A stretch of 64,000 bases of DNA from a virus (taxonomy: Duplodnaviria > Caudoviricetes), in IMG/VR virus record IMGVR_UViG_3300033067_001757, positions 123,244 to 187,243 of that record; one strand, 5' to 3'. This document shows, in pieces, positions 19,002 through 35,112 of this stretch; positions within the stretch are counted from its first letter, which is position 1, and every line of letters begins with the position of its first letter. A program made the position numbers and the translations under genes. The notes beneath the pieces are model-generated. The model did no database searches. It worked only from the letters and a program-made list of their open reading frames with translations, and was not told the origin of the DNA.

Positions 19002-19379
19002 TTAAGCTACTCCAATTGCTTTACCTGTTATCGCTGCATTTTCTGCAGAAAGTTGTTCTGATAATTTGAGAAGCTGATCACGCTCATCATCTGTCATATT
19101 GGTATCACCGGTTTCTTTACCGCGATCTAAACCTTTCTGGATGATTCCGACCATATCGATCAATAGTTTATCATTTTTGATACCGGATTCTACATATGAA
19201 TGAACAAGTGGAGTAACCCTCAAACCATCATTGAGATTACCTGGTTGTATCAAGTTTCTGAGCTGCTCTATCATAGAGTTAAGCTGGGTCTCTTTGTTCT
19301 TGGTTCTTTCATAAATTTCCTTCAGTAGATCACTGTATTTCTTATTCCCAAAAACCTTTGTATCGAAATCGGTAGCCAT
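19002..19379 (-). CDS. conserved hypothetical phage protein
   Basis: 125-aa helical ORF preceded by ATATTTAT. Confidence 0.7.
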   Translation of the reverse strand: MATDFDTKVFGNKKYSDLLKEIYERTKNKETQLNSMIEQLRNLIQPGNLNDGLRVTPLVHSYVESGIKNDKLLIDMVGIIQKGLDRGKETGDTNMTDDERDQLLKLSEQLSAENAAITGKAIGVA

Positions 19380-19391
19380 ATATATTCATTT

Positions 19392-20171: not shown

Positions 20172-20297
20172 TGATCCTTTCTTGTGATTCTTAAAATTGT
20201 GCTGTGTGTCATTTGCTTGTCTGTTGTATCTTCGTATTATTATCGAGATGCACACTTATAATGTGCTGAAAAACAATCTTATAATTCTTCTGTTGGT

Positions 20298-20606
20298 CTA
20301 TTTTGCAGCTTTTGCTGCACTCTTGTCCTGGTTGTAATTAATTGCATATCCGCTGAGTATTAATTGGATGTCGTTCATTTTCTTGAAATAAACTCCAATC
20401 TCATCGTCACTTTCGAAACCTGCACGTACTTTAGGATCCTTTAAAATCTCATCGCTTTCCTTGATGTACGTTGTGATCCTAGTTATGTAATCATCCTTAA
20501 ATAGGATATCGTCTTCGTAGATTTCAACCTTTCTTAAAAGGTTTCTGATGATAAAGCCAGCCACTGCCAGCGCTGTGAATAGTACTGCTATAATTATAAT
20601 TTCCAT
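20298..20606 (-). CDS. membrane-anchored coiled-coil protein
   Basis: N-terminal hydrophobic helix IIIIAVLFTALAVAGFII. Confidence 0.7.
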   Translation of the reverse strand: MEIIIIAVLFTALAVAGFIIRNLLRKVEIYEDDILFKDDYITRITTYIKESDEILKDPKVRAGFESDDEIGVYFKKMNDIQLILSGYAINYNQDKSAAKAAK

Positions 20607-20607
20607 A

Positions 20608-21384
20608 TTATACTGATAAGAATTTTTTTAGGAGTTTATTTGATGATTTGGGCTTAACTGAAGCCCCTTCATTCAGTGGTTGTCTATCATTTTTAGGAAC
20701 ATCGGGTATAATTCTCTTTATATTCTGTTGAATAGGCTTTTTTAGCAGGTCTCCTTCGATTCTAGCGGCCATAAGGTCTCCCTGGTGGATTATGTAGGGA
20801 AGATTGCTACGCAGCTTGTATTCCTCTGAGAATGCTACATAATACCCCTTATTCCCTTCTTCGTATAAACCATCGTGCAATTTGATACCCAAATATTCGT
20901 TTTCGGTCAGATTGATACCGAGTGACTGCAAGATGAACAGACTACGGTCCTGTATCTTCATAAAACTGAGTAATGGGTTACTCTTGAACTTCTCTCCGCG
21001 GTTCTTCTTGTGCCATTCCGAATCCTGGTCAATATACATCTCATGTTCTTCTGATCCGAACTTACCGAGATCGTGGTTTATGGCTACCATAGCAAGTTCT
21101 TCATCTGTAAAATCGATTATAGCACCCATTTCAGACCATATATCCTTCACTTTGAAGGAACACTCATACACTTTTAAGATGTGAAAAATATAGCCTCCTA
21201 AAAATGCTGAATGATATGATGTTTTTGATGACGCCGGCATCATTGCTATCCTTTGTGCATACTTATCGTAAAAAGTATAAATCTTACACCATCTATTAGT
21301 ATCGTCGTGAGTATCCGGTATAAAGTTTTTTAATATTTGCAAAAACTTCGTCCAATTTTCTTCTATCAGTTCCGCTGTCAACAT
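20608..21384 (-). CDS. HD-domain phosphohydrolase (YhaM-like)
   Basis: PASS..YHSAF.GG...H, HDLGK, HDG, IIHQGD. Confidence 0.85.
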   Translation of the reverse strand: MLTAELIEENWTKFLQILKNFIPDTHDDTNRWCKIYTFYDKYAQRIAMMPASSKTSYHSAFLGGYIFHILKVYECSFKVKDIWSEMGAIIDFTDEELAMVAINHDLGKFGSEEHEMYIDQDSEWHKKNRGEKFKSNPLLSFMKIQDRSLFILQSLGINLTENEYLGIKLHDGLYEEGNKGYYVAFSEEYKLRSNLPYIIHQGDLMAARIEGDLLKKPIQQNIKRIIPDVPKNDRQPLNEGASVKPKSSNKLLKKFLSV

Positions 21385-21390
21385 TTGTTA

Positions 21391-22275
21391 TTATTTTTTA
21401 GTTCGATGTATTACGGCAAGTTTTTCTATTCTTTCCATCATATTGCTATTTTTTTGCTTTAGTATATTATTACAGTATGATTTTAAATCCTCTATGTGAT
21501 ACAAAGAATGTTTGTATATAAAGATTCTCCCTTTAGTTGTATATCTTTTTTTCTTACAACAGGCAGTAATTTGAGATGGATGAATTCCCAAATATTTACC
21601 AGCGTCAACAGCCGACTTCCACTCTTGTAAAATTTCACCAGTATTAGAAAGCATCAACACTGAAATAGATCGATCATTTTGTATATTAATATGTCCTTTT
21701 TTAGAATTTATTTCTCGTTCAATCATTCTATCTGAACAGTGTTTTTTAATATCATCAATAAGATTGAAATCTTTCTTATATAGCCATATAAAACCACCAC
21801 CCGTCTTACTTCGATTAGAACAACTTTGATAAATACTAGCACTACTAATATTTAAACTTCTGGTCGCTTCTCTTATACCATCCCAATGTTTTATTACTTT
21901 ACCGACAGTAGAAATTTGTACGATTGCTATAGAATTTTTCCTTGCTATAGACTTTAAGGTTTTTGAATCATGTGAACCATTGCTACCGGGATACCGTATG
22001 TTCATCATTTTTATATCGCAATCTGTATATAATTCCCAATAAAGTATTTCGTAATCATTTAAAGTTTTTTGATCTACATCATGAGGTAATTGATGTATGA
22101 TATCAAATGAATGATTAGAAGCTCCGTGTTCAACTAAACTATTAAACAAAAACTTTTGTCGTTTACACCTCAACGTTGAGTACAAGTAAAATCGTCTTGA
22201 TATATCAGTACTTTGTCCAATATATACTTTACCTGTAGGAGAAGTTACTTTATAAATACCTGTTATTTTAGGCAC
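21391..22275 (-). mobile_element. free-standing GIY-YIG homing endonuclease with two NUMOD1-like DNA-binding repeats
   Basis: TGIYKVT..KVYIGQS..RR; IKHWDGIREA...I...C....TGGGFIW and LQEWKSAVDA...ITACC; GTG start. Confidence 0.85.
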
Positions 22276-22366
22276 CTATAAAACTTTCTTTTCTTAGAGA
22301 TGATATAAAAGCATTGATATTGTCAGAGAACTTATTCCAGTTCCCTTTAATAAGGTCTTCAGTCAT
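22268..22366 (-). pseudogene. orphaned 32-codon duplicate of the HD-hydrolase N-terminus
   Basis: MTEDLIKGNWNKFSDNINAFISS aligns with MLTAELIEENWTKFLQILKNFIP; its stop overlaps the endonuclease start. Confidence 0.65.
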
Positions 22367-22369
22367 ATT

Positions 22370-22730
22370 GGATTAAATATTAAATTATTACTATATAATA
22401 GTATTAACTTTTACTATAAATTTATAATTAAGTATTACTATATTATTAAATTAATTTATTATATATAAAATATTAAATACTATAAAAATAAATTAATATT
22501 ATAATATATTTAGTAAATTAGTTATATAAGTATTTACTATTAATATTATATATTCAGTACTATATTATAGCCATCGCCCGTACCGGGCACCTACTATATT
22601 TATTGTTAAGGACAATGCAAAATTAAGTAAAATATAGATAACTTCCAAATTTATTTTTAATTAAGTTATATACTTCTACAAAATAAATTTTATTAATTCA
22701 AAATTAAGTTCTACATTTGCAATTCAAATA
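22370..22730. other. extremely AT-rich divergent intergenic region
   Basis: Almost only A/T except one GC palindrome, GCCCG-TAC-CGGGC (22576-22588); separates the minus- and plus-strand blocks. Confidence 0.7.
22712..22719 (+). promoter_or_regulatory. Bacteroidota -7 promoter element TACATTTG
   Basis: Exact TAnnTTTG, preceded by AAGTTC as at 26038 and 31362; no clear -33 TTTG. Confidence 0.5.
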
Positions 22731-22737
22731 ACATAAT

Positions 22738-23349
22738 ATTTCAGACTTTCTTATAGATCTTACTGGTCCCCGTAACGGGGAATTACCTAGTTTATCCCGG
22801 AAGAAAAAGAAGTCCATTAAAAAGAGCTCCGTAACGGAGCAAGGTAATGGAAAGCTTACATCCAAGGATATTCAGAATTCTCTTAAACTCAGATTTACTA
22901 ATCACAAATATGTGATCAGTAATGCTTTTATATTTCCCGGAGGGTGGGAGTCAGATTTCTTTTCAGTATCCGATGCCGGATACCTTTACGAAATAGAGAT
23001 CAAGGTATCTAAGAGTGATTTTAATGATGACTTTAAAAAGAAGTCTAAGCATACTTTGCTGGAATCTGCTGAGCAGGAACATAATGAATTGAGGCCGAAT
23101 AAATTTTTTTATGCTGTACCGAGGGGTCTTTTACCCAGTTTCTCGATACCGACTTATGCGGGACTGATTGAAGTGAATAACAGGAATGAGCAGGCAGTGG
23201 TGATTAAAGAAGCTCCGTTCATTCATCAGACGAAGCTCTTGGAAAAATATAAAACGAAACTCTTGGATAAGTTCTGCTGGCGCTATAACGATTTATTGAT
23301 GCGTCACTATGAAGACCAGGACCTTGAATTTGAAGGTGAAGGAAAATAA
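22738..23349 (+). CDS. PD-(D/E)XK nuclease, MmcB-like
   Basis: WESD...YEIEIKVSKSDF..D, NKFFYAVP, AGLIEV; frame is open from 22732, with a probable ATT start at 22738 (track start is GTG 22912). Confidence 0.7.
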   Translation: MSDFLIDLTGPRNGELPSLSRKKKKSIKKSSVTEQGNGKLTSKDIQNSLKLRFTNHKYVISNAFIFPGGWESDFFSVSDAGYLYEIEIKVSKSDFNDDFKKKSKHTLLESAEQEHNELRPNKFFYAVPRGLLPSFSIPTYAGLIEVNNRNEQAVVIKEAPFIHQTKLLEKYKTKLLDKFCWRYNDLLMRHYEDQDLEFEGEGK

Positions 23350-23822
23350 TGAAACGAATACTCCAGGAAGAAACAAAGTTTTACCGGAAGCTCAACTACT
23401 CAGACTTTCGTTACGGAATGAGAGAAGCAATTGCTTTTGCTTTGGTTCCGGATGGTAATAGTGATTTGGTTGAGTATTATGGGATGGTGCAGACGGATCC
23501 TACAAACGGCTTACATAAACCTCACTGGATATACATTTTGGTCAATCCGTCAACACCTGGTATATGTAAGATTGGATACACGACACTCACTGTTTACGAA
23601 CGCGTGAGACAAATAAATTCCGCTACTGGGGTCATAATGCCGTGGTATCCGGTATTTATCTACAAGTGTCCGAATGGAAAAATGTTGGAGCGTGATATAC
23701 ATCAGTACCTGGAAAATATCGGACTGAGGATAAATGAAAAGCGCGAAGGATTTAGTATTCAGTCAACCGAGGCTATCAAGATAGTAGAAGAATTAGGAAA
23801 GAAATATAAGTATAGTACCTAG
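23349..23822 (+). CDS. T5orf172 / GIY-YIG domain protein
   Basis: WIYILVN...KIGYT...ERV.QI..TGV..P, LE..IH, REGF. Confidence 0.8.
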   Translation: MKRILQEETKFYRKLNYSDFRYGMREAIAFALVPDGNSDLVEYYGMVQTDPTNGLHKPHWIYILVNPSTPGICKIGYTTLTVYERVRQINSATGVIMPWYPVFIYKCPNGKMLERDIHQYLENIGLRINEKREGFSIQSTEAIKIVEELGKKYKYST

Positions 23823-23864
23823 ATACAATAAAATGCTTTTATAATACATAAACACTATAATCAA

Positions 23865-24278
23865 ATGAGTAAACTCAAAAAAGTAATCTTCGAATACGAA
23901 GACAAAACATTATCAGCATCTGACGTTCAGGCCGAGAAATGGCAGCAGAATTTTACAGAAATGCTTGGCTGGGCCGATTGTGAGAACAACAATAAGTTTG
24001 TCAGTAATCCGGTAGCATTTGAAGTTGGCGAGGTTTCGGATAGCAGCGCCGCGACTGCAATTGAAATTGAGGAGCTGAAAGAAAAATATATTGCTACTAT
24101 CGAAAAGTTGCAAGAAGATATTATAGATCAGATTGAAAAATATGAAGCGCTCCAAAAGAAATTCGATGCATTGGTACAGGAGACAGCCATTATACCACAA
24201 CAACCAATCCCTGCTGAACCTATAAAGTTATCAGCGACACCGGTACCGGAAAAATTGCCTGCAGCTAAAAAGAAGTAG
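23865..24278 (+). CDS. hypothetical coiled-coil protein
   Basis: 137-aa ORF. Confidence 0.7.
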   Translation: MSKLKKVIFEYEDKTLSASDVQAEKWQQNFTEMLGWADCENNNKFVSNPVAFEVGEVSDSSAATAIEIEELKEKYIATIEKLQEDIIDQIEKYEALQKKFDALVQETAIIPQQPIPAEPIKLSATPVPEKLPAAKKK

Positions 24279-24312
24279 ACAAATCAACTCAAAACAAAAC
24301 AAAATAAAGGTC

Positions 24313-25032
24313 ATGAAAACAGGATACAAAGGTACCGATGAGAATATGTATTGTCGCGGTGCCAAATACGAAATCGGAGTTGATTACAGGAAACCTGAAA
24401 AAGAAAATCCAAGATGCTGTACAGCGGATGGATTTCATTATTGTAACAAACTGGTTGATGTATTTTCCAGAAAGAGTAATAACGGTAAGAACAGGTTCTT
24501 TGAAATAGAGGTACTTGGAAACTTTACAGATTCAAATAGTGAATCTATAACCACGGCTTTCAGAATAATACGCGAACTTTCTAAAGAAGAGATTATTAAA
24601 CATATTATAGAAGATAATCTCATGTTGAGCACAGTAAGGAAGTTACAAAATAATAATCCTTACGCTATTGTTGCCGGCAGCGTTTCACTATACCTGCAGG
24701 GTATTAAACTAAAAAGATTTTCTGAATCCAAAGCGTCTGATATTGATGTTATTCTTCCTTTCTTTTCTCTGTTTGAAGGAAGTCAGACCGAAAGCAATTT
24801 CGAACGAACTAAACCATCTGACAACGACTTTGACTGTGTAGTAACTGTGGATAGTTGTAAGATTGATATTATAATTAATCCTAAAGAACCATACTCAATA
24901 GTGGAACATGATGGGTTTAATTATAAGGTTGCTCGGATTGAAGAGACGCTGAAAGCTAAACTGAATTACTCGGCTAAGGGTGGTGAAAAGCATAAAAATG
25001 ACATCATGGAGATGCTGGGTATAAAAAAATAA
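24313..25032 (+). CDS. two-domain protein: Cys/His-containing N-terminal domain plus Pol-beta-type nucleotidyltransferase
   Basis: YKG.D..M.CRG..YE.G...C...GFHYC; then AGSVSL..G...DIDV...KIDI. Confidence 0.6.
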   Translation: MKTGYKGTDENMYCRGAKYEIGVDYRKPEKENPRCCTADGFHYCNKLVDVFSRKSNNGKNRFFEIEVLGNFTDSNSESITTAFRIIRELSKEEIIKHIIEDNLMLSTVRKLQNNNPYAIVAGSVSLYLQGIKLKRFSESKASDIDVILPFFSLFEGSQTESNFERTKPSDNDFDCVVTVDSCKIDIIINPKEPYSIVEHDGFNYKVARIEETLKAKLNYSAKGGEKHKNDIMEMLGIKK

Positions 25033-25048
25033 AAATACAATATAATCT

Positions 25049-25978
25049 ATGAAACTCCAGGCAATATCAGTCTGCGTAAACTATTCCGATTTCTTCATAC
25101 ATAGTGTCTTAGAAAATAAGAAGCTGTTTGACAAGTGGGTGGTAGTCACAGATAAAAATGATATAAATACAGAACAGCTATGTAAAGATCATGGTCTTGT
25201 TTGTGTCAAGACTGACGTATTTTATACCCGTGGCATATTCAATAAGTTTGCCGGGATTAATGAAGGTCTGGTAGAAATAGACAATGATGCATGGGTATTG
25301 TTTCTCGATGCCGATATGGTGTTACACGAACAGACAAGAAGGGTATTAGATTCTTTAAACCTGGATGAGACTTTTATCTATGGAATGGATAGACTCAACT
25401 GTGATGGTATACAGAGATGGAATGAATTTAAACAGAGCCCTGGGATACTCAAAGATTATTGGTTATTACATTCAGCAGGTTTAGAATTTGGTGCCAGACT
25501 TGTACATCTGTACGGATACGAAAAAGGTGATGGTAAGTTTGCGGGGTGGGGTCCTTTAGGATTCTTTCAATTGGCTCACAGATCTCAATTTGAATCATAT
25601 CCAGAAAATAGTTTAGGCGCGGATCATTGTGATTTACTATTCACCAGGCACTGGCCCCGGGATAAAAGAATGTTGATACCGGAGTTGTATGCTATTCATC
25701 TTGAAAGTGAGAATGCCTATAAAGGTATCAACTGGCGTGGAAGAAAATCAGCACCATTTGTTGAGCCTGTCATCATACCTGTTGAAGAATCGGTCGTAGA
25801 AGAAATATCTCAAGATGAATCGGTACCGTCTACTGTGGTAAACGAAATACCACCCGTTATAAAAAAAAAGTTTGCCAGGAGACAAGTTTGTAGATGGTTC
25901 AAATTGATAGTAAGATTTTTCAAATATTGGTTTTACACCATTACCGGATGGTTTACCATTCATCCACCGAAATATTAA
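25049..25978 (+). CDS. GT-A fold glycosyltransferase (GT2-like)
   Basis: SVCVNYSDF, NK..GINEG, VLFLDAD (DxD), GFFQL. Confidence 0.75.
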   Translation: MKLQAISVCVNYSDFFIHSVLENKKLFDKWVVVTDKNDINTEQLCKDHGLVCVKTDVFYTRGIFNKFAGINEGLVEIDNDAWVLFLDADMVLHEQTRRVLDSLNLDETFIYGMDRLNCDGIQRWNEFKQSPGILKDYWLLHSAGLEFGARLVHLYGYEKGDGKFAGWGPLGFFQLAHRSQFESYPENSLGADHCDLLFTRHWPRDKRMLIPELYAIHLESENAYKGINWRGRKSAPFVEPVIIPVEESVVEEISQDESVPSTVVNEIPPVIKKKFARRQVCRWFKLIVRFFKYWFYTITGWFTIHPPKY

Positions 25979-26021
25979 AAATAAAAGTTATGACATTTGA
26001 TATTGAAGGATTTAAAATAAA

Positions 26022-26053
26022 TTTGGAGAACTTATTTAAGTTCTATAATTTTG
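26022..26053 (+). promoter_or_regulatory. Bacteroidota primary-sigma promoter (TTTG-N20-TAATTTTG)
   Basis: Consensus -33 and -7 elements with a 20-nt spacer, upstream of 26074. Confidence 0.6.
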
Positions 26054-26073
26054 TTGTATAATAAATAAAGGTT

Positions 26074-26559
26074 ATGGTAATAGCTGTTACGGGACACCGC
26101 CCGGACAAACTTGGTCGTGAGTACAACATGAAAGGTCCTTACTCAGAGTATATCTCTAACGAATTCGATAAGATAATAGAGGCTTATAAACCGGAAGCCG
26201 GTATATCCGGAATGGCCTTGGGAGTTGACACCTTGTGGGCCATATCTTGCCTCTACCACAATATTCCTCTTATAGCAGCGGTACCATTCGAAGGTCAGGA
26301 ATCAGCCTGGCCAAAGAGTTCCCAGAGGGTTTACAGACAGATATTAGATCATAATGAAACCCAAGTAGTGTATGTATGCGAACCAGGTTATGAAGCGTGG
26401 AAAATGCAGCGACGCAATGTTTGGATGATCGATCATGGTGATATATTGGTGGCTGTATGGGATGGTTCGTCCGGTGGTACCGGGAATTGTGTAAAAGCTG
26501 CAGAGAAAGTCAAAAAGGAGATCATCCGTATTGATCCAAGGTTAGCGGTTAAATATTAA
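26074..26559 (+). CDS. SLOG family protein (YspA/DUF1273-like)
   Basis: IAVTGHRP, SGMALGVD, RN.WM.D..D.LVAVWDG.SGGT. Confidence 0.85.
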   Translation: MVIAVTGHRPDKLGREYNMKGPYSEYISNEFDKIIEAYKPEAGISGMALGVDTLWAISCLYHNIPLIAAVPFEGQESAWPKSSQRVYRQILDHNETQVVYVCEPGYEAWKMQRRNVWMIDHGDILVAVWDGSSGGTGNCVKAAEKVKKEIIRIDPRLAVKY

Positions 26560-26579
26560 ATAAAACACAAATAAAGGTC

Positions 26580-27398
26580 ATGAACAAACTCGATAAACAA
26601 GATTTATCCTTCGCGGTATCACGTCTTCCATCCGAACTGAAAAAGATAATGAAGCTACCAGAATGGCAAAATGCCATCTACGTTGGTGGTGGATACATCC
26701 GAGCTGTGGTATCTGGAGAAAAGATCAATGACATTGACATCTTTGTTAAGAGTAAGAAGGATGGAGAGTTACTGGCTTTGAAGCTTGCTGATATCAATAA
26801 GGTCAAAGTGCATACATCAGACAATGCTTTTACTGTAAAGACCAGACCGATAGCCATCCAGATCATTCACCGCTGGGTCTTCGATAAACCAGAAGACGTT
26901 GCAAACAGCTTTGACTTTACTATATGCTGCGGAGTAATATACTTCAATAATAATCAATGGAACTCATTCACCGATGAACGATTCTACCAGGATCTCGCTG
27001 GTAAGCGTTTGGTCTACCGTCAGCCAATAAGAAATGAAGATAATGGTGGATCACTGCTCAGGGTCCTGAAATACTACCAGAGAGGCTACCGCATTCCTCT
27101 CGATTCACTCGGTGCTGTTATAGCCCGACTCTTGAAAGATATCAAACCAGAAGCAGTAAACATGACGTGTGAATCTGATGTAGCCAGGGTGATCACAGGA
27201 TTACTCCGTGTAGTCGATCCGCTTGTCGATCCGACCCATGAAGCTCATCTGCCGGCGCAGGATGTAACGATGAGTAGTGAAGAAGACCTGCAGCTTCTTG
27301 AAGAAGAAATAGTACCGGAACATATCAAAAAAGCTCTGGCTCACTCTAAAACAGAGAATGAAATTGTGTATCGAGAACGTAATGAAATCGCAGAATAA
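26580..27398 (+). CDS. tRNA nucleotidyltransferase / poly(A) polymerase-like protein
   Basis: VGGG.IR, DIDIF, FDFTIC, LR..KY..RGY. Confidence 0.75.
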   Translation: MNKLDKQDLSFAVSRLPSELKKIMKLPEWQNAIYVGGGYIRAVVSGEKINDIDIFVKSKKDGELLALKLADINKVKVHTSDNAFTVKTRPIAIQIIHRWVFDKPEDVANSFDFTICCGVIYFNNNQWNSFTDERFYQDLAGKRLVYRQPIRNEDNGGSLLRVLKYYQRGYRIPLDSLGAVIARLLKDIKPEAVNMTCESDVARVITGLLRVVDPLVDPTHEAHLPAQDVTMSSEEDLQLLEEEIVPEHIKKALAHSKTENEIVYRERNEIAE

Positions 27399-27421
27399 AC
27401 AATAAAAACAAAATAAAGGTT

Positions 27422-28273
27422 ATGATCAAAGACGTATTCGTTTTAAGTAAGAATGCATGGCATTCAAAACTCATGAAGTACATATGGAATTTAAACTACA
27501 GAGACTTCTCTCACATGTGTCCGTATTTCTGGCTTAGTGTGTTTAATGTTATTGCGTTTGTTCCGGTATTTATAGGGAAGAGTGTGATAGGTAAAATATT
27601 TACATATTCTCGTTCCCGGTTTGGCGATTATTTGGAGAAAAAAGAAAAACAATGGGCTCTGGATTATATTGAAAAATTGAAAAATGATCCAAAAGAACTT
27701 GTAAAATTATCCAGATTATCAACTAAGAAATACAACGATATTTTGTATTATAGGAATTTAAATTTCAGTTCACTTGGAAGTAATTTTTGGAAAGAACTTT
27801 ATCGTCTAAGAGATTCGTATAATGATGAATTGAGTGAAAAATATGAGATAAAATCTTATCGTAAGGAAGAAAAAAGTCTGACCAATAAAGAACGAATCAA
27901 TAAACTACTAAAAGTTGTTAAGCCTATATCAAAGGCCATCCTTTACATAATATCTGCAGCAGGTTTGTTCGGTGTAGGTATGTTACTAATGTATCTTTTT
28001 ATTTTACTCGCAGGAATACCTGGTTCAGATTGGTTGAATTTTGCAACCGTAATCGGATATTGTATAGTTGCAATAATATGTTTTTTACTTCTTTGCGGTG
28101 GAATCTATCTCATTAAAGAACATATCAATGAAAATATTAAGAATGGTTTCGTTACATTCTTTTCTACAATAGCGCAATCAATTGGATGGTTAGTTAAAAA
28201 AATAATCGGCGCTGTATCATTCCTGGTAATGATGCTTAAAGATAGCTGCCCGGCTATAAATTGGAAAGATTAA
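27422..28273 (+). CDS. membrane protein
   Basis: CPYFW motif and several hydrophobic helices. Confidence 0.7.
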   Translation: MIKDVFVLSKNAWHSKLMKYIWNLNYRDFSHMCPYFWLSVFNVIAFVPVFIGKSVIGKIFTYSRSRFGDYLEKKEKQWALDYIEKLKNDPKELVKLSRLSTKKYNDILYYRNLNFSSLGSNFWKELYRLRDSYNDELSEKYEIKSYRKEEKSLTNKERINKLLKVVKPISKAILYIISAAGLFGVGMLLMYLFILLAGIPGSDWLNFATVIGYCIVAIICFLLLCGGIYLIKEHINENIKNGFVTFFSTIAQSIGWLVKKIIGAVSFLVMMLKDSCPAINWKD

Positions 28274-28278
28274 ATTTT

Positions 28279-28479
28279 ATGACACTAAACAGTATAGCAG
28301 AATGGTACTTTATCTTAGGTATCATCACAACAATTATCGGAGTATACCGTGGCCTGAGAAATAAACAGACAGTAGAACCAGATGAACTCACTGTATTCAG
28401 TTGGTTTATTCTATGGTGGATATGGTTACCCTGGCTCGGGTACCGGTTGTTTGTGACTAAAATTTTAAAGAAAGCTTGA
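28279..28479 (+). CDS. small membrane protein
   Basis: Two hydrophobic helices. Confidence 0.6.
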   Translation: MTLNSIAEWYFILGIITTIIGVYRGLRNKQTVEPDELTVFSWFILWWIWLPWLGYRLFVTKILKKA

Positions 28480-28480
28480 T

Positions 28481-28768
28481 ATGAAAAAGTACTTAGCTTA
28501 TCGCGATGTTGACCCTGAAGGTGACGCCTGGTCTGAAAACAGTTTCCTGTTTCAAAACGAAGAAGATGTTGCAAACTTCTTTAAAGAAGATAATCCGGAC
28601 CTGATTGACATTTATACAGACGAGGATGACCGGCAAATATTCAATTTTGAAGTTACAAAAAGTAACAGTGGACGAATAAGCTGTGTATCATTCAATACTC
28701 AGTATGCAGGTGAGGTAATGATTGTTGAAATGTATGGAGGGTATTTGATAAAACGAATTAATTTATGA
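28481..28768 (+). CDS. hypothetical acidic protein
   Basis: ORF tightly packed with neighbours. Confidence 0.65.
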   Translation: MKKYLAYRDVDPEGDAWSENSFLFQNEEDVANFFKEDNPDLIDIYTDEDDRQIFNFEVTKSNSGRISCVSFNTQYAGEVMIVEMYGGYLIKRINL

Positions 28769-29094
28769 GCACAGTAACAGTAAACGGACGAACATTCGTG
28801 CATAACGGAAGTATTTCAATATCCAATGGAAAGATTATCGTTAATGGTAAAGATGTCACACCGGAATCTAAAAATATAAACATCATTGTAAACGGGAATA
28901 TTGATCACATAAAGGTTGATAGTTGTGATCATGTAACTGTTACCGGCAACGCAGAAAGCGTTGAAACAATGAGTGGTGACATCAATATCAACGGTGATGT
29001 GAATGGATTTGTAAAATCTATGTCCGGAGATATAAAATGTGGTCATGTATCCGGTAAAGTTTCTACAATGTCTGGAGACATAAAGAATAAATAA
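28765..29094 (+). CDS. DUF4097-like beta-strand repeat protein
   Basis: Repeated V.TMSGDI units. Confidence 0.7.
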   Translation: MSTVTVNGRTFVHNGSISISNGKIIVNGKDVTPESKNINIIVNGNIDHIKVDSCDHVTVTGNAESVETMSGDININGDVNGFVKSMSGDIKCGHVSGKVSTMSGDIKNK

Positions 29095-29095
29095 T

Positions 29096-29458
29096 ATGAC
29101 GTTCAACTCAATAATAAGTTACTTACCATCAAGCCGGGATAGAACATACGTTACGATAGATCAAATCGAGGAAGAGTTTCCAGATTTCATCGACAAAATA
29201 GAAGAAATTTATACCGATTCAGATTATAGTTCAGTTTCTAAGAATATCGCCAAAGGAGTATGTAGTCAGCTTGAAATATGGGAGAATATATCCTGGAAAC
29301 AGTTCGATATGATCATGAATATGTATAAGACTCCACCGAGAAGGAATAAAAGAGGTTCAAGTTCTAATAGATCGTTTGGGTGGGATTTCCCTACTGGCAA
29401 TGAAAAAATGGAAGATTATGTTCATTTCGGTATAAACTTTAAAGGATTGAGTATATAA
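29096..29458 (+). CDS. hypothetical protein
   Basis: 120-aa ORF. Confidence 0.65.
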   Translation: MTFNSIISYLPSSRDRTYVTIDQIEEEFPDFIDKIEEIYTDSDYSSVSKNIAKGVCSQLEIWENISWKQFDMIMNMYKTPPRRNKRGSSSNRSFGWDFPTGNEKMEDYVHFGINFKGLSI

Positions 29459-29469
29459 TCGACCTGATT

Positions 29470-29640
29470 ATGAGCAGAAAAGATGATGTTTTCTTTAGTT
29501 TTCCATCAATAATATTCACAAAATGTACCAATACGCTCACAAAAGAGGCTAAAAAGACCTTCAAATGTGAGTGGGATAAGTACTATACCGTAACATTTGC
29601 CTGGCTGTTTTGGGCCTATACAATAGAATATACACCGTAA
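29470..29640 (+). CDS. small hypothetical protein (56 aa, not in ORF track)
   Basis: MSRKDDVFFSFPSII...FAWLFWAYTIEYTP fills the gap between neighbours. Confidence 0.55.
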   Translation: MSRKDDVFFSFPSIIFTKCTNTLTKEAKKTFKCEWDKYYTVTFAWLFWAYTIEYTP

Positions 29641-29650
29641 AACTTTTAAT

Positions 29651-29887
29651 ATGTCACCAATATTTTTTTATTTTCTCGGATTTATAATTTCTTATGTCTC
29701 AGGTAAGCTATTAAGAAATTACACTAAAGAAAACGAATGGGAAGATGTACGTATGACGCTTTTATTAGCAATATTCAGTTGGGTAGGATTTATATGTATT
29801 TTACTAGCATCGATCGCGATACTGTTACAACCTGTATTAAAAAAGTTCCGCATTAAATATTCAGATAAACCACCAAAATGGTTATGA
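29651..29887 (+). CDS. small membrane protein
   Basis: Two hydrophobic helices, C-terminal KPPKWL. Confidence 0.65.
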   Translation: MSPIFFYFLGFIISYVSGKLLRNYTKENEWEDVRMTLLLAIFSWVGFICILLASIAILLQPVLKKFRIKYSDKPPKWL

Positions 29888-30297
29888 CCAACGCCCACCT
29901 ATTTCTCGATGATGTTCGTATGCCAATTGATGTAGAGAAGTACATTAATCCGGTAGAATTAAGACCACTTTACCGGTTAAAGCCGTGGATTATAGTAAGA
30001 AACTATCGGGAATTTACTGAATATATAAAAAAGAATGGTCTACCAGGTACTATTTCATTTGACCACGACCTGGGCGAAGATGAGGCTGAAAGTATGGTTT
30101 CTGAAGGTATATCCAAGAGAAAGGCCCGGGAACACAAGAAAACAGTTAAATCCGGATACGATTGTGCTAAGTGGCTTGTAGATTATGTTATTGAGAACGA
30201 ATTAATACTACCAGACATCTTATGTCATAGTATGAATCCGGTAGGTAAGGAAAATATCCTGATGTTATTTGAAAATTATAAACGATTTATGATATGA
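29878..30297 (+). CDS. cyclic-phosphate-processing receiver (cREC) domain protein
   Basis: LFLDDVR, ISFDHDLG, GYDCAKWL, HSMNPVG. Confidence 0.8.
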   Translation: MVMTNAHLFLDDVRMPIDVEKYINPVELRPLYRLKPWIIVRNYREFTEYIKKNGLPGTISFDHDLGEDEAESMVSEGISKRKAREHKKTVKSGYDCAKWLVDYVIENELILPDILCHSMNPVGKENILMLFENYKRFMI

Positions 30298-30326
30298 CTG
30301 TCCGTTTTTAAGATCCAATACCCAGG

Positions 30327-30357
30327 AGCCCGGTGGAACATTCCATCCGGGTTTTTT
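30327..30357 (+). terminator. intrinsic terminator between convergent genes
   Basis: CCCGG-TGGAA / TTCCA-T-CCGGG stem followed by T6. Confidence 0.75.
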
Positions 30358-30358
30358 A

Positions 30359-30742
30359 CTACCACGCCCTGCAGGACCAGTATCTTGCTTTAGTACGCGG
30401 TCCCGGATCTTTACAGTTATGTCTGGCCCTGAATGAAGCTCTTCGTTCCGGGTTGTTCTTTTTAATATTCATTCCCTTCTGACCAAAGTTGACTTTTACA
30501 ACTTTACCAGTAGCAGGGTTCTTTACATATACCTTAAACTTTTTTACATCACCCTGCATACGTTTACCTAATTGTACAGTATGTCCCTGGTATTCAGCTT
30601 CCAACAATGACGGATCAGTAATTTCTTTTAATTGTTGCTTATACTCCTTTATAAACTCGGTGAACTCTTGTATGTCATAAATATTTTCAAGATCATATTC
30701 ATCGATACCGTCATCCTTTTTGTTCGAACATTGGCTACTCAT
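30359..30742 (-). CDS. conserved basic phage protein (KKFKVYVK..VNFG..SFRARH.C..KARYWSC family)
   Basis: Motif set recalled from T4-like and cyanophage genomes; start at MSSQC follows ATATTTAT. Confidence 0.75.
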   Translation of the reverse strand: MSSQCSNKKDDGIDEYDLENIYDIQEFTEFIKEYKQQLKEITDPSLLEAEYQGHTVQLGKRMQGDVKKFKVYVKNPATGKVVKVNFGQKGMNIKKNNPERRASFRARHNCKDPGPRTKARYWSCRAW

Positions 30743-31342
30743 ATTAATATTTTGTATATAAATATGGCTGGTGTCCGTTACGGACTTTAGTTGTATATAC
30801 AAATATCTATTAGACTGGTATGATCTGCAGGGTTTTCTTCTACACTAATTTTGCCGGACAGAATTTTTTCTGAAAACAGAATTTCCATTCAGAGAACTTC
30901 TGTACACGAATTTACCCCATTTTAAGCCCCATACGGGCCTGTTTTTGTTTATTGATATGAATGTACCGGAGCTTTGCTTTGCGGTCAATGGTGCCGGGAT
31001 AACGCTTAAATGGACACAATGTCCATATTATTGTCCAGGTACGGTGATGGAAATATCTGTCATTAAGTCGTTACTTTAGGGTTAATGAATGAATAAGCCG
31101 TCATTATCTAACTTATTGATATATACGTATATATTGAAGGGTTACCGTGGAACGGGCGGTGAAGTGTAAACGAACCTGCCCACTCCCCTACCTGGTTAAA
31201 GTTTTGTTAAGGTACAATAATTAACACTTTTTTTAGAAATAAAATAGTAAAGAAAAATTTTAACATTTCATTTGAAAATAATTTATTATAGAACTTTTGA
31301 GATACCTAGTAAGATTTCATTAACAAATTTTTAACAGTTAAC

Positions 31343-31375
31343 TTTGTTCGGCTATCAAATAAAGTTCTACATTGC
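31343..31375 (+). promoter_or_regulatory. host-type early promoter (TTTG-N21-TACATTGC)
   Basis: -33 TTTG and near-consensus -7 element preceded by AAGTTC; heads the plus-strand early region. Confidence 0.55.
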
Positions 31376-31396
31376 ACTATCAAATTTTATTAACCG

Positions 31397-31426
31397 TTCT
31401 GCATCTCACAACAATAAGATGCAGGA
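31397..31426 (+). promoter_or_regulatory. 5' UTR hairpin with CACAACAAUA loop
   Basis: 10-bp stem TTCTGCATCT/AGATGCAGGA; loop matches the three downstream hairpins. Confidence 0.75.
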
Positions 31427-31441
31427 CACAAAACAAAAGTT

Positions 31442-32023
31442 ATGAAACAGGAAATTAAAGTTAGGTTGGTAGGTAAAAATGTAAAGCAGCATACCATAAC
31501 TAACGAAGGTTCAGTAAGTGTAAACAGGCAGGTTACTGATATTGCAGTTCTGCTTTGTTTAGATGCAACCCAATTTGAAAAGCTGCCAAAAGTTGAGGTT
31601 GTTTACAATGGTGTAACACATTCTTTCAACATGGTGAAAGATGCCGCAAAATTATCTTTCACTTTGTTGCTCGAAATTGGTAAGGTATTGTTTTCTAATG
31701 TTACCACTTTTGAAGGTCGTACGGAACAAAGCAGTAACCCTATTGCATTAGCAATACTTGTACCTTTTAAGTACAAGGAAAAAACCGTGTCATATGAAGC
31801 ATACACTAAAGCCATTAGTGTAAAGTTTTCCGGTCTCAAAACATTGGTTAAACACGAGCAAAACAAAGCAGCTTTTTTAGATACTGCTTTTAATGCTACT
31901 GTTTCTATTGCCAAAATTGCGAATAGCGAATATTCAAAAATCGCTAAAGGTGCAAAGGAAATTGCCGCTAAAGGTTATGCTGCTGCCATTGCTGCAAACC
32001 GTTTGCCCGTTGCTACTGCTTAA
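31442..32023 (+). CDS. orphan basic protein, candidate RNA-binding regulator
   Basis: 193 aa, Lys/Ala-rich C-terminus, first gene after the early promoter, flanked by conserved-loop hairpins; the function is inference. Confidence 0.75.
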   Translation: MKQEIKVRLVGKNVKQHTITNEGSVSVNRQVTDIAVLLCLDATQFEKLPKVEVVYNGVTHSFNMVKDAAKLSFTLLLEIGKVLFSNVTTFEGRTEQSSNPIALAILVPFKYKEKTVSYEAYTKAISVKFSGLKTLVKHEQNKAAFLDTAFNATVSIAKIANSEYSKIAKGAKEIAAKGYAAAIAANRLPVATA

Positions 32024-32031
32024 TTTTTGAT

Positions 32032-32206
32032 AGGGTTACAATACAACAATTTTGCAGCCCTTAATTAGTTATTAGTTAGCGTTTATTGTGAGTATGGTTT
32101 GAACTTGTGCAATACAACAATTTTGCAGCAAGTTGTTAAACGCTCTTTTACATAGTTTGTTTATAGTCTAATTTAAGATGCCGCAATACAACAATTTTGC
32201 AATGGC
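32032..32206 (+). repeat. three-copy hairpin array, core CAATACAACAATTTTGCA
   Basis: Exact 18-mers at 32039, 32110 and 32184, each closed by a different outer stem. Confidence 0.9.
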
Positions 32207-32224
32207 TTTATACTGTTTACATTG

Positions 32225-33225
32225 TACATATCTTTTACAAAAATTAAAGGTAAAGTACACTAAAAAATGTTTATAGTAAACTCGAAAGTAAACGATAACA
32301 AACAGGTATGTACTAAATTTGTGCAGCTATCTTTTTTGAATAGCGGGAGCAATACATTAAAACAATTATGTACCCGTGAAAAAAATTTAAACTACTGCGT
32401 AAACTAAACTTCCGTTCCTTCATGTTTCTACATGGTGTATCATATAACGGATTGATGTTTACAAAGTGATAAGGTTTAAATCGTGTGTATCCCAGTACGC
32501 ACATTCATAAAACATTAGCTTAATCAATAACAGCACAAACGTACATAAGGCCATCGTGATACTGTTGATCAGGTAAGAGGTATGTCTATACCCAGCCAGG
32601 GATACGTGTGTACATTCGTGTGCCCATACTCCCACTTGTGCTACCTGGAACGGTCATAAAGCATCTACCTTAAATGGTTGGTTTTGTAGTTTGATGCTTA
32701 CACGTTTACATGAAAACTACACCAAAGCGGGTACGCATACGCTGAGGATACCGGATGAGTCCGGATAATATATGCCCATGAACGAATTGTTATACTTAGC
32801 ATTCGCATGGATCAAAACTATAAGTAAGTACATTCACTACCGGAACCATGTACAGTACACCAGGTTAACCGGTTCAACGTCCGCGGCATCATGTGCTTCG
32901 GCGCTTTTGTTATATCCCAACATAAATGACAACCATCGTTAAGCAGTATAATTCACAGGCAATTGCGTAAGCCCTGTACTTAAAATCGTAAGTCTTAGCA
33001 CATACAGTCATACTCGGGATCAATGGGCAACGACGTAGCTATCCCCCTCACGGGTTTGGTTAGGAGCTTCGTATGGCTCCCCCATTGCGGCAGGTAAGGT
33101 AAACATGTGTAAACCGGTAACCAACCCGTTACATGCATAAGCCCTTACCAAATCAACCGGTTGCGTAATACCTGTCCCTTCATAGACAGTTAGATAGACT
33201 CGCAGTCTGTCCCGGTTGCTAACTA
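32225..33225 (+). ncRNA. candidate large structured non-coding RNA (about 1 kb, boundaries approximate)
   Basis: No credible ORF; many nested and long-range helices with G-U pairs, UUCG loops and an H-type pseudoknot. Confidence 0.6.
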
Positions 33226-33237
33226 AAAATTAAGGTT

Positions 33238-33360
33238 ATGCGACATCTAAAACTGTACAGGCAAATCAGGTTATGGGAACTGAAGATAACTAAAATGAGT
33301 TCTCTGCATAAGGTAATGTGGAAAGCTGAATGGTTTAAGCACAGGCAAGCGATACAGTAA
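33238..33360 (+). CDS. 40-aa basic peptide (not in ORF track)
   Basis: TAAGGTT-ATG start; MRHLKLYRQIRLWELKITKMSSLHKVMWKAEWFKHRQAIQ. Confidence 0.55.
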   Translation: MRHLKLYRQIRLWELKITKMSSLHKVMWKAEWFKHRQAIQ

Positions 33361-33445
33361 GTTATCTTCCTTTCAGACGTACATACATATCAAAACAACA
33401 TTCACGGGCTTAAATCGCCTTAAAATCGCTAAATCAATAAAGGTC

Positions 33446-33568
33446 ATGTACATTCTCATAGTTCCGGTACTGGCAGCCATTAAGATTATACTTGTTATCC
33501 TGCAGAATCCAAAGGTAGATTTGGAATCAGGTAATTATGATGTTCTGCCAAGTAATATACCGGTGTAA
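33446..33568 (+). CDS. 40-aa membrane peptide (not in ORF track)
   Basis: AATAAAGGTC-ATG start; MYILIVPVLAAIKIILVILQNPK... Confidence 0.6.
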   Translation: MYILIVPVLAAIKIILVILQNPKVDLESGNYDVLPSNIPV

Positions 33569-33588
33569 TCAAAAAACAAATAAAGGTC

Positions 33589-33594
33589 ATGTAA
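33589..33594 (+). promoter_or_regulatory. start-stop (ATG-TAA) minigene
   Basis: Perfect AATAAAGGTC start motif, then ATG TAA overlapping the terminator stem. Confidence 0.6.
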
Positions 33595-33626
33595 GGAATG
33601 TTGGCTTAGGTTGGCATTCCTTTTTT
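33593..33626 (+). terminator. intrinsic terminator
   Basis: AAGGAATGTTGGC-TTAG-GTTGGCATTCCTT followed by a T tract. Confidence 0.75.
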
Positions 33627-33679
33627 ACTTCACATTCAATCACTTCAATAAAACGCCCGTATCCGGGTAAAGAAAGGTC

Positions 33680-33943
33680 ATGGAAAGAGCAATTGTAATC
33701 CCGATGCCAACAGTACTTGGCAAGATAGACTTAAACGCAATCAACCAGCGTGAGCAACAGGCTAAGAAGGCCAAACGTGTGTTCATTAATGAATCTCGTG
33801 AGAAGGCTGAGGAATTTAATGAAACCTTGGACCGAAAGAAGAAACAGGAAAACCTTCACAAAGACCTGCAAAGAGCTTTCTCACGCAGACCTGGTGCCAC
33901 TGTTACAGATGATCATGGCCATCTGGTGATCAAATTAAGTTAA
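33680..33943 (+). CDS. hypothetical protein
   Basis: 87 aa, VLGKIDL motif, AAAGGTC-ATG start. Confidence 0.7.
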   Translation: MERAIVIPMPTVLGKIDLNAINQREQQAKKAKRVFINESREKAEEFNETLDRKKKQENLHKDLQRAFSRRPGATVTDDHGHLVIKLS

Positions 33944-34064
33944 ATGCCCTACAGGGCACTTTTCCACTCGGTCCCGGTACTACTCGTAACTGATATAGGC
34001 CGGGGCTATTCTATTAAACGTCCGTTACGGACAATTAAAACGCCCTTATAGGGCAATTAAGATC

Positions 34065-34475
34065 ATGGAAACAGGTACAGTATTAAACCAGCAAGAGTTA
34101 TTCCTACTCGTTAAACAGGAAGCTGAGAACTTAAAAGTACATGCTACACAGGAAGAGCTGTCTAATTTGAGTTTTGATAAATTGGGTCCTTTAAACGCTG
34201 ATGCATGTGTATACGGATTGATGACTGGTTGTTGTTACAGTACAAGAGCTACTGAACTTATAAACTTATGCTGCGAAAGAGTTATAAGTGATGATTCTGG
34301 TGTAAGCAGCAGCAGAGTATTGAATAGATCACCAAAGACATCAATCAGAACGTCATACTGGTCACCAATAGAAGTTTACATTGCTCAGGAAGGACAGTTG
34401 ATTAGTAACAACAAATCCCTCATATCCTTTCTTAAGTCCGAAACAGATACTCTAACCTTTAACGAAGCTATATGA
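34065..34475 (+). CDS. hypothetical protein
   Basis: 136 aa, CVYG.MTG.C motif. Confidence 0.7.
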   Translation: METGTVLNQQELFLLVKQEAENLKVHATQEELSNLSFDKLGPLNADACVYGLMTGCCYSTRATELINLCCERVISDDSGVSSSRVLNRSPKTSIRTSYWSPIEVYIAQEGQLISNNKSLISFLKSETDTLTFNEAI

Positions 34476-34627
34476 ACCACATCACACTCCTTCAGGCACA
34501 AAACAGGATCAACTACTTAAACGGTATAATCTCCATTCTTGGTACCCGGTTGGCTCATAAATACGTATTGGAACTTGACAACCTGGTTGCATACATCGAA
34601 ACACTTAACTGGGAGCTTGGCTATTGA
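34472..34627 (+). CDS. small hypothetical protein (51 aa, not in ORF track)
   Basis: ATGA overlap with the previous gene. Confidence 0.5.
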   Translation: MNHITLLQAQNRINYLNGIISILGTRLAHKYVLELDNLVAYIETLNWELGY

Positions 34628-34667
34628 AGAAATCCGGTCAGTATTCGAAGCAAACCGTAGGATGGTT

Positions 34668-34698
34668 GAGGGCATTAGCTTTCAGCCCTCTTGTTTTT
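34668..34698 (+). terminator. probable intrinsic terminator
   Basis: GAGGGC...GCCCTC followed by TTGTTTTT. Confidence 0.5.
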
Positions 34699-35112
34699 CG
34701 GTAAAAAAGCATTAATGAAGCGTTTTGGTATTAACATTTCATTAGCACTGTTTTATTTGTTAATATATATCCAATTTTTATGGATTTATTTGGTGGTTTG
34801 CACGGGAGGGGCAGCTTCCCTCCCATCCGGTCGGTCGCACCCTACGGGGTATGTTATGATTTGTAGACCTGTTATTCCATAAATGTTATTTGTATATACA
34901 AATGTTTCCCACTTTTTACCACAAAATCCCACATAGGTATGGTTTATAGTATGTTTGTATATACAAATATAATAGTTCTTCAACATTTCGTACACACTCG
35001 TTAGCATCGTTCCAACAAGTTCAGAATAATATTTGTTTAGCCCCGGCTCCCGATGCTCCGGGACATATCACCTTATTACACTCACCTTTTAAATACCCGT
35101 AATGGGATTTCA

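Follow-up and report, generated by a model that had tools for sequence, protein, structure and literature searches.

A conserved structured RNA with a shared 3' module and alternative 5' domains in the longest gene-free tract of a large phage genome

To our knowledge, non-coding RNAs of bacteria and phages that approach 1 kb and carry dense conserved structure are very rare, with GOLLD, ROOL and OLE as the main examples. Each of these three revealed an unexpected RNA architecture. OLE is a large structured RNA that forms a ribonucleoprotein with dedicated, genomically linked proteins (OapA and others). [quoted passage not shown] ROOL measures about 580-660 nt, is often found near tRNA islands, and no split into a universal 3' and a variable 5' part has been reported for it. 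It is a large, ornate RNA of phages and prophages (RF03087), with many helices and pseudoknots and no known protein partner or function (PMC12286853).

The locus described here lies in an IMG/VR virus record of 187,243 bp, rated complete, whose bases 123244-187243 form the window analyzed, a stretch of 64,000 nucleotides to which all positions refer unless otherwise stated. The genes are tightly packed. A structural block at 1-22275 runs leftward, and after it comes a long block of rightward genes, mostly small, many of which open with the start motif AATAAAGGTYATG (32 copies in the genome). An initial annotation, made from the letters of the sequence, had proposed a new large structured non-coding RNA at 32225-33225. 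The proposal is supported by covariation, by the exclusion of coding and by the lack of any match in Rfam 15, but its limits had to be moved: the conserved element extends from about 32140 to 33088 and measures approximately 950 nt (about 1060 nt if two upstream hairpins with conserved loops are included). Table 1 collects the features of the locus.

Table 1. Features of the RNA locus and its surroundings (positions in the window)
Feature	Position	Strand	Basis
Promoter-like TTTG ... TA(C/A)ATTGC pair upstream of the cassette gene	31344..31377	+	by eye
5' UTR hairpin CTGCATCT / AGATGCAG, loop CACAACAATA	31397..31426	+	sequence
Orphan 193-aa gene, co-inherited with the type A 5' domain	31442..32023	+	ORF
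Two hairpins with loop TACAACAATT and unlike stems	32033-32060 and 32102-32134 (within 32033..32134)	+	
Start of the near-invariant type A block, including the third TACAACAATT-loop hairpin (32180-32206)	32140..32206	+	
Domain 1, type A, closed by AUGGCUUU/AAGGCCAU	32202..32554	+	consensus fold, helix table
Domain 1 contents: nested arm; hairpins	32384-32482; 32411-32451, 32420-32435, 32483-32502		
Domain 2, closed by GUGAUACUGU/ACGGUCAU and UCAGGUA/UACCUGG; hairpins 32579-32592, 32608-32623	32556..32657	+	
Most conserved core of the type A RNA, ~140 nt	32640..32778	+	
Domain 3, row of hairpins: 32685-32721, 32722-32747, 32751-32764, 32776-32810, 32839-32873	32667..32873	+	
Universal 3' module	32877..33088	+	all nine lineages
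Lineage-specific insert, 130 nt, two hairpins, between module and next start site	33089-33218	+	alignments
Downstream small ORFs, 40 aa each	33238-33360 and 33446-33568	+	ORF list
ATG-TAA minigene	33589-33594	+	ORF list
First plus-strand intrinsic terminator downstream	33593-33622	+	terminator scan

No family catalogued in Rfam matches the RNA. At gathering scores, cmscan with Rfam 15 gave no hits in the window, and a more sensitive scan of 29400-34200 (E up to 10) returned four chance-level hits, GOLLD not among them. Six relatives scanned against Rfam were also without hits. The initial annotation had been unable to match the region to a tmRNA, an RNase P RNA or an intron; Rfam gave no match and ARAGORN no tmRNA; the Rfam models of group I and group II introns, RNase P RNA, tmRNA, 6S RNA and self-cleaving ribozymes were all unmatched. 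A hammerhead was considered at 32742-32770 (CUGAGGA ... hairpin ... AUAA) and discarded, the GAAA of the hammerhead core being absent. [quoted passage not shown] Like ROOL, the RNA is large, ornate and phage-borne, but the RF03087 model found no match either. Because the covariance-model match fails, and the adjacency to tRNA genes that is a GOLLD trait fails too, it is a member of neither family, and GOLLD and ROOL are its closest analogues. OLE (RF01071), a bacterial RNA of extremophilic Firmicutes that is not phage-encoded, gave no model match; with its linked proteins it offers a model for the link proposed below between 5' domain and upstream gene, although the orphan proteins found here have no detected homology to any family.

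Protein coding in this stretch is excluded. The region had been described as the longest non-coding stretch of the genome, and over the whole 187,243 bp the longest tract without an ORF of at least 80 aa is indeed 32024-33679 (1656 nt), the next-longest ones being tRNA islands. It had also been called ORF-free; in the six frames of 32000-33500 no ORF of 64 aa or more is open (no open frame exceeds 63 codons). Stop-codon recoding was tried as an explanation and rejected, since reading TGA or TAG as sense still opens no long frame. In the alignment of homologues, gap length is not divisible by three in 42 of 44 runs, and of seven internal ORFs tested (about 30-63 aa) not one is open in all three relatives. 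The conclusion stands on the frames, the gap lengths and the loss of ORFs in relatives.

Relatives of the locus were scarce in reference collections. With the stretch as query, blastn gave zero matches among 50,697 phage records and 72,556 plasmids, and two of three IMG/VR scans with flanking proteins found nothing, while the third led to a locus (L002) with a 43% homologue that is non-syntenic and has no gene-free tract. IMG/VR scans with two invariant 20-25-mers and a scan of GTDB genomes with one invariant 20-mer found none. All motifs reported in a published search of IMG/VR for structured RNAs were 29-151 nt long, and none was accepted from fewer than three IMG/VR regions (PMC10690425); because the element has only one IMG/VR record, it would have escaped that survey. 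In a search of sequencing runs, 20 runs from 13 studies contained all or part of the stretch. Their sources are mostly wastewater, river or digester samples, where the small word shares with the stretch in some of the runs X10-X20 carry no weight for habitat. About nine of the 20, from several studies, are recorded or guessed as RNA libraries. Four runs were compared with 31000-35000; segments of these 4 kb left uncovered in RNA runs X17 and X18 carry no information. Contigs from RNA libraries were found in three runs (1049 nt, 222 nt and 178 nt); these runs were chosen for containing the stretch, DNA carry-over is possible, and strand, ends and level are not readable from contigs. The longest of them, from run X9, is a diverged copy of 31977-33034.

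A 20-mer from the conserved core led to one metagenome contig (L003), and the other loci were reached through homologues of two downstream small proteins, traced to their contigs. In this way eight further distinct lineages were obtained from wastewater, digester and river assemblies, nine in total with the window, and every one of the eight has a gene-free tract of 1.1-1.7 kb in the same place. They fall into type A (the window, L003, L010 and L011), type B (L004, L012, L014 and L022) and a distant clade (L031-36). Type A relatives match the window up to exactly 33088, beginning at about 32140 or farther to the left (L003, whose homology begins at 32139, at 87% identity, L011 at 83% and L010 at 77%), and all homologies stop at 33088. 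Identity in the downstream coding DNA of these relatives is 74-83% (for L003, 74.5% vs 87% in the RNA), so that the nucleotide identity of the RNA to its relatives equals or exceeds that of adjacent coding DNA.

The comparison of lineages revealed a modular build. The 3' module of about 210 nt, which ends in a three-way junction, is present in nine of nine lineages, whereas the 5' 700-850 nt exist in at least three mutually unalignable forms. Type B loci share with the window only the last 70-210 nt; their preceding 850 nt or so are unlike type A and 80-95% alike among themselves. A similarity between the 5' domains of types A and B was sought by sequence and by profile, and none was found (best nhmmer E 0.26). 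The distant clade carries the 3' module (nhmmer E 2e-31), and has the last ~500 nt of type B at 78%; its 5' part, about 800 nt long, resembles neither type and is a third form. Beyond the cassette, identity between the genomes is 80-96%, and the boundaries of exchange lie at about 31391 on the left and 32877-32897 on the right. In L003 a 5' part of type A is followed by a 3' module with 99% identity to the one in the type B locus L004, which indicates recombination within the 3' module. The RNA and its 3' module are single copy in their own genome. The helices GGTAAGG/CCTTACC and CAACCGG/CCGGTTG of the initial annotation (33093-33218) have their segments in place, but they fall outside the conserved element, in the lineage-specific insert; this insert is present in runs X2 and X18 and absent in L003, L004, L010-L014, L022 and L031, where a start motif directly follows the module.

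Evidence that the structure is under selection came from the alignments more than from the single sequence. Folded alone, 32140-33088 gave a z of -2.53 on the plus strand (none of 20 shuffles as good) and of -0.31 on the minus strand, against -1.85 for a coding control of the same length; the plus strand is thus better than shuffles, yet only modestly. The consensus of the four type A sequences contains 232 pairs in about 39 helices, with 97.1% of cells paired. Thirty-nine pairs are changed on both sides, compared with 15.3±2.9 in 500 shuffles (0/500 reached this number) and with at most 8 when partners were slid by 1-3 columns; with nine lineages, at most four per 5' type, one inherited change may count several times, and many helices are invariant. 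As RNAalifold seeks covariation, column-shuffled alignments and coding DNA from the same genomes served as controls; its raw compensatory counts are not diagnostic, diverged coding DNA giving 17-26. For the plus strand of the type A RNA, the energy z was -8.1 and compensatory pairs numbered 35 vs 9.0±3.0 in shuffled alignments (maximum 14), while the adjacent coding control (z -3.2; 17 vs 13.8±3.7) was not enriched. The corresponding values were -13.8 and 18 vs 5.6±2.0 for type B, and -5.8 and 16 vs 6.1±2.4 for the 3' half of type B plus L031. Covariation, which the initial annotation had named as decisive, is therefore significant in each of three alignments: that of type A, that of type B, and the one joining type B to the distant clade.

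Individual changes illustrate the same behavior. In L010 whole arms are replaced and the pairing is kept. In the X9 contig, 16 of the 39 listed substitutions (41 in all) form eight double changes that keep pairs, among them C32412T+G32450A, C32413T+G32449A, C32421T+G32434A, A32422G+T32433C, G32424A+C32431T, T32357C+A32368G and G32580A+C32591T. None of these 39 listed differences lies within 32592-32854, and divergence reaches about 11% in 32283-32591. Few long-range helices join the domains, and none is both long and covarying; for this reason the element could be several adjacent RNAs or a structured UTR instead of a single particle.

The RNA is quite likely the plus strand. Every comparison of strands by energy or shuffling favored it, with z values of -8.1 vs -6.3 (plus vs minus) in the type A alignment, -5.8 vs -3.5 in alignment A7 and -3.7 vs -2.0 in alignment A6. 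In several well-supported hairpins plus-strand G-U runs become Watson-Crick in relatives; in hairpin 32608-32623, three consecutive plus-strand G-U pairs do so in L010, which fits the plus strand only. One-sided changes in helices pass mostly through G-U, and L012 has an A-U to G-U change within the CAAUGGG helix. Counts of G-U vs A-C in predicted helices were ambiguous on strand. In addition, the adjoining genes and the next terminator are all on the plus strand.

With respect to anatomy, all complementary segments named by the initial annotation are present at the coordinates it gave. TATGTAC..TTTGTGC with GCACAAA.GTACATA belongs to the consensus structure, though invariant. Compensatory changes lend strong support to the nested arm ATTTAAACT/GGTTTAAAT, inside which lie GTAAAC/GTTTAC and TCCGTT/AACGGA, and within domain 1 helices 7, 19, 20 and 21 have 2-4 compensatory pairs each. 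CAGGTA/TACCTG is kept through a change of U-G to C-G. A pseudoknot had been proposed: its stem GTAGTTT/AAACTAC (hairpin 32685-32721) has two compensatory pairs in L011, and its other stem, AAGCATC/GATGCTT, is invariant and has an alternative partner, AGAUGC, at 32176-32181. Two helices were contradicted. For the long-range helix GTACCCGT/GCGGGTAC, one strand is taken up locally by the hairpin GCGGG...CCCGU, where a U-A pair covaries to C-G, and L010 alters the distal strand of the long-range helix without compensation. The hairpin GTGC-TTCG-GCGC reads GTTG-TTCG-GCGC in relatives, and CGGCG pairs instead with CG(U)CCG.

At the start of the near-invariant type A block (32140-32206), columns 143-226 of alignment A2 (four lineages) hardly vary. 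In the most conserved core, about 97 consecutive bases are invariant between the window and L003. In domain 3, helix 28 has two compensatory pairs and helix 31 five, its CCAUG/CAUGG turning into CCCUG/CAGGG with the inner stem replaced. Three elements make up the 3' module: helix CG(U)CCG/CGGCG, which encloses a variable loop; AUCCC/GGGAU, with a variable insert inside; and the terminal three-way junction. In the latter, CAAUGGG/CCCAUUG, already seen by the initial annotation and kept in nine of nine lineages, encloses a variable hairpin that covaries and the hairpin GGAGCU-UCGUAU-GGCUCC. In L031 GGAGC/GCUCC of this hairpin is changed to GAGAAC/GUUCUC and the loop is invariant.

The gene upstream of the RNA changes in step with the 5' domain: its product has 193 aa in type A, 229-249 aa in type B and, in the distant clade, 197 aa. 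The 193-, 229- and 197-aa proteins were compared, and no homology was detected among them or to a known family. For the 193-aa protein, Pfam and PHROG gave no match, a search among 5.8 billion proteins found no homologue but itself, and the ESM Atlas offered only sub-threshold leads at chance level (a T4 RegA-type translation repressor, 0.81; a closterovirus coat protein, 0.84). Its AlphaFold2 model (pLDDT 42) was unusable. The terminator scan detected no terminator between this gene and the RNA. In type B the upstream stop codon is followed at once by the structured region; in type A RNA hairpins come first. Given the lack of a terminator and the covarying RNA-type hairpins that occupy the interval, the RNA appears to be co-transcribed with the upstream orphan gene, and it is probably not a stand-alone gene. 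The promoter-like pair of Table 1 occurs at the matching place in L022 (2259-2291), is common to the type B loci and lies in sequence about 81% conserved with relatives; judged from sequence, it is a candidate for the place where the RNA-bearing transcript starts. The idea that TTTTACATA is a recurring promoter motif was discarded, as this sequence has no repeat in the genome.

Four hairpins with a common YACAACAAUW loop belong to the type A cassette. The first is the 5' UTR hairpin, which precedes the 193-aa gene inside the swapped cassette and whose loop reads CACAACAAUA; ACAACAAT occurs there at 31408 and in three downstream copies. The other three, with UACAACAAUU loops, lie 3' of the gene, and the exact repeats of CAATACAACAATTTTGCA are at 32039 and 32110. 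Their stems differ from one another and covary between phages, which identifies them as RNA hairpins and not as promoters: the TTTG of the three CAATACAACAATTTTGCA copies, tried as promoters, sits in a stem that covaries in relatives with the loop kept. In L011 the stems of the hairpin at 32102-32134 are changed on both sides at six pairs and keep the loop. Type B has no repeated loop hairpins. The A/C-rich YACAACAAUW loops and a conserved CA-rich run in type B resemble the unstructured A/C-rich translation leaders of the phage itself.

As for the surroundings, ARAGORN found neither tRNA nor tmRNA in the 64-kb window. A cREC_REC gene is located at 29878-30294, and neighboring genes in relatives have a precomputed Gad2 annotation. 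Annotation of the neighbors found no replication genes adjoining the RNA locus, and neither GC skew nor base composition is disturbed locally at 32-33 kb. Downstream, the AATAAAGGTYATG start motif recurs at 33436 and at 33579, and 40-aa ORFs are called at the same place in relatives. The annotation context is consistent with a host-takeover or counter-defence region.

Several explanations can be weighed against these observations, and we lean, with restrained confidence, towards a stable folded RNA, or RNA-protein particle, derived from an early transcript and having a co-inherited protein partner and a 3' junction of common function. This reading is favored because the structured region follows the upstream stop with no terminator between, the 5' domain and the gene are inherited together, and the module is kept whatever gene follows. 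Transcription would start at the promoter-like site near 31344-31377 and proceed rightwards through the upstream gene and the RNA, and the transcript would then act as the folded RNA or particle. The variable 5' domain may work with the co-inherited protein, a partnership suggested by co-inheritance alone; in type A the four YACAACAAUW hairpin loops may be binding sites of the 193-aa protein. A common function would come from the shared 3' junction, probably that of defining the end, so that the 3' end might be defined or protected just before the start of the next gene. The main rival, less probable in our judgment though a serious one, is that the element acts in cis as a structured portion of an early polycistronic mRNA, either as a long 3' UTR or between cistrons, and is not an independently acting RNA; its targets would be the upstream orphan gene and the small genes starting about 20 nt past the module, whose stability, processing or translation it would control. 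The start of the structure right after the upstream stop (type B) or after RNA hairpins (type A), the interval free of terminators up to the one at 33593, the abutment of the 3' module on the start motif of the next gene in most relatives, and the inheritance of gene and 5' domain as one cassette all agree with such a role. Nevertheless, some 950 nt and 39 helices far exceed what known cis-regulators of bacteria and phages need, the next gene varies in relatives (40, 52, 56, 65 or 143 aa) around an unchanged module, and the lineage of the window tolerates 130 nt between module and next start. Moreover, the ~140-nt core suggests a function of the RNA's own because it is nearly invariant.

A replication origin primed by RNA, or another site acting at the DNA level, in which the folded transcript would control primer formation, appears improbable. 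Structured pre-primer RNAs are established, such as ColE1 RNA II, and T4 oriF and oriG are R-loop origins; the locus resembles these in being a structured, non-coding element in the main non-coding tract of its replicon, here the largest of the genome, and it is single copy. However, those transcripts are much smaller and simpler and are tied to an adjacent origin, and we know of none in which a whole domain is exchanged together with a protein gene. Here no origin features were found: apart from the three loop hairpins, general inspection noted neither iterons nor repeated sites for protein binding, skew and composition are level, replication genes do not adjoin, and an origin would not be expected to exchange its 5' 700-850 nt freely along with a protein gene. 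Still less credible, to the point that we give it hardly any weight, is a non-functional spacer, a decayed gene or a set of unannotated small proteins whose helices stem from chance and alignment-guided prediction. The 17-26 "compensatory" pairs that RNAalifold reports in diverged coding DNA and the modest single-sequence z speak for such a view, but in three alignments the compensatory pairs exceed every shuffled or slid control and in the coding control they do not, conservation is at least that of neighboring genes, whole arms are replaced with pairing kept, internal ORFs are unconserved and gaps are not multiples of three.

Returning to the folded RNA or particle with a protein partner, its early, accessory setting and neighbors of counter-defence type point to host takeover or counter-defence rather than to virion structure. 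A more speculative version, which we put forward tentatively and consider unlikely as it stands, is a new kind of modular phage ribonucleoprotein cassette: a universal 3' RNA junction joined to exchangeable units, each of a 5' RNA domain plus an orphan protein, that recombine between related phages and set the specificity. Such a unit might do so, for instance, by acting as decoy or sponge towards an RNA-binding or defence factor of the host, and a higher-order RNA particle might form, by analogy with the RNA-only homo-oligomeric nanocages of GOLLD and ROOL.

The largest "empty" tract of such a phage is thus not empty. The element would add another class of large RNA, borne by a clade of uncultured large phages found in wastewater and digesters, with an unusually clear modular design in which one shared 3' junction is combined with at least three unrelated 5' domains, each with its own orphan gene. 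The linkage between 5' domain and orphan gene is a concrete handle on protein partner and function, of a kind that the known ornate RNAs largely lack.

The motif AATAAAGGT(C/T)ATG is a translation start motif used throughout this phage. In the whole genome it directly adjoins the start codon of 32 genes (window examples in the table below), and its distance to the ATG is too short for a classical Shine-Dalgarno sequence. The canonical form of this motif also precedes an ORF of 40 aa just past the RNA, which occupies the same position in the window and in several relatives, and which is probably a real conserved micro-protein.

It should be mentioned that AATAAAGGTYATGTAA, in which the start motif is immediately followed by ATG TAA, recurs alongside an AACCGG...CCGGTT hairpin in three relatives with type B RNA (L022, L014 and L004) and in L031, of a distant clade. 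In these four lineages the minigene and its hairpin form an insert of about 110 nt in a loop of the 3' module of the RNA, and a similar ATG-TAA minigene is joined to a terminator in the window. Together, minigene and hairpin resemble a small hairpin cassette that is mobile or recombines.

A second stretch poor in ORFs, about 640 nt long, separates the cassette gene from a leftward gene of 147 aa upstream; this stretch shows about 81% conservation with relatives and is probably a divergent promoter region. A cREC_REC (PF20274) gene is located 1.8 kb upstream of the cassette. In relatives, a gene a few kb upstream carries a precomputed Gad2 (PF26128) annotation, and a Pfam scan of its window counterpart gave no match. 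The remaining long ORF-free tracts of the genome are explained by a cluster of 17 tRNA genes outside the window.

Coordinates of the features described (window positions unless a contig or genome is named)
Feature	Position	Remark
Start motif, examples	24303, 26064, 33436, 33579	among 32 genome sites
40-aa ORF	33446-33568	
40-aa ORF, relatives	L007:1469-1591, L011:1844-1966, L015:2386-2508, L026:4751-4873	
Minigene-hairpin insert	L022:3927-4040; also L014, L004, L031	columns 225-345 of A7 (type B 3' half plus L031)
ATG-TAA minigene	33579-33622	terminator 33593-33622
ORF-poor tract	30803-31441	
147-aa gene	30359-30802	phrog_7595, leftward
cREC_REC gene	29878-30294	
cREC_REC/Gad2 neighbourhood, relatives	L004:126-854, L012:1-462, L022:1-182 and 7433-7750	
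Counterpart of Gad2-annotated gene	26580-27398	
tRNA gene cluster	16992-29896 of whole genome (G000)	minus strand
YACAACAAUW-loop hairpins	31397-31426, 32033-32060, 32102-32134, 32180-32206	
CA-rich run	L022 ~3540-3570	type B
Non-phage bases	L003:1-28	adapter remnant
178-nt contig of X18	33052-33229	

Regarding the sources, the public metagenome contig L003 (ERZ650308 NODE_10926) starts with an Illumina adapter remnant, CTTTCCCTACACGACGCTCTTCCGATCT. Near-identical pieces of the RNA region were found in two metatranscriptomes, run X18 from mosquito and the marine run X20, which is very small (2 million letters); in X18, a 178-nt contig spans part of the region. The presence of this region of a wastewater phage in both runs could reflect either cross-contamination or a wider habitat.

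The orphan gene of 193 aa is flanked by four hairpins in all, with the common loop YACAACAAUW; their stems are unlike one another and covary. Type B RNAs lack these hairpins and present a conserved, single-stranded CA-rich run, GGAACAACCAACAAAAAUAAAACAAAC. Both elements may be sites for an RNA-binding protein.
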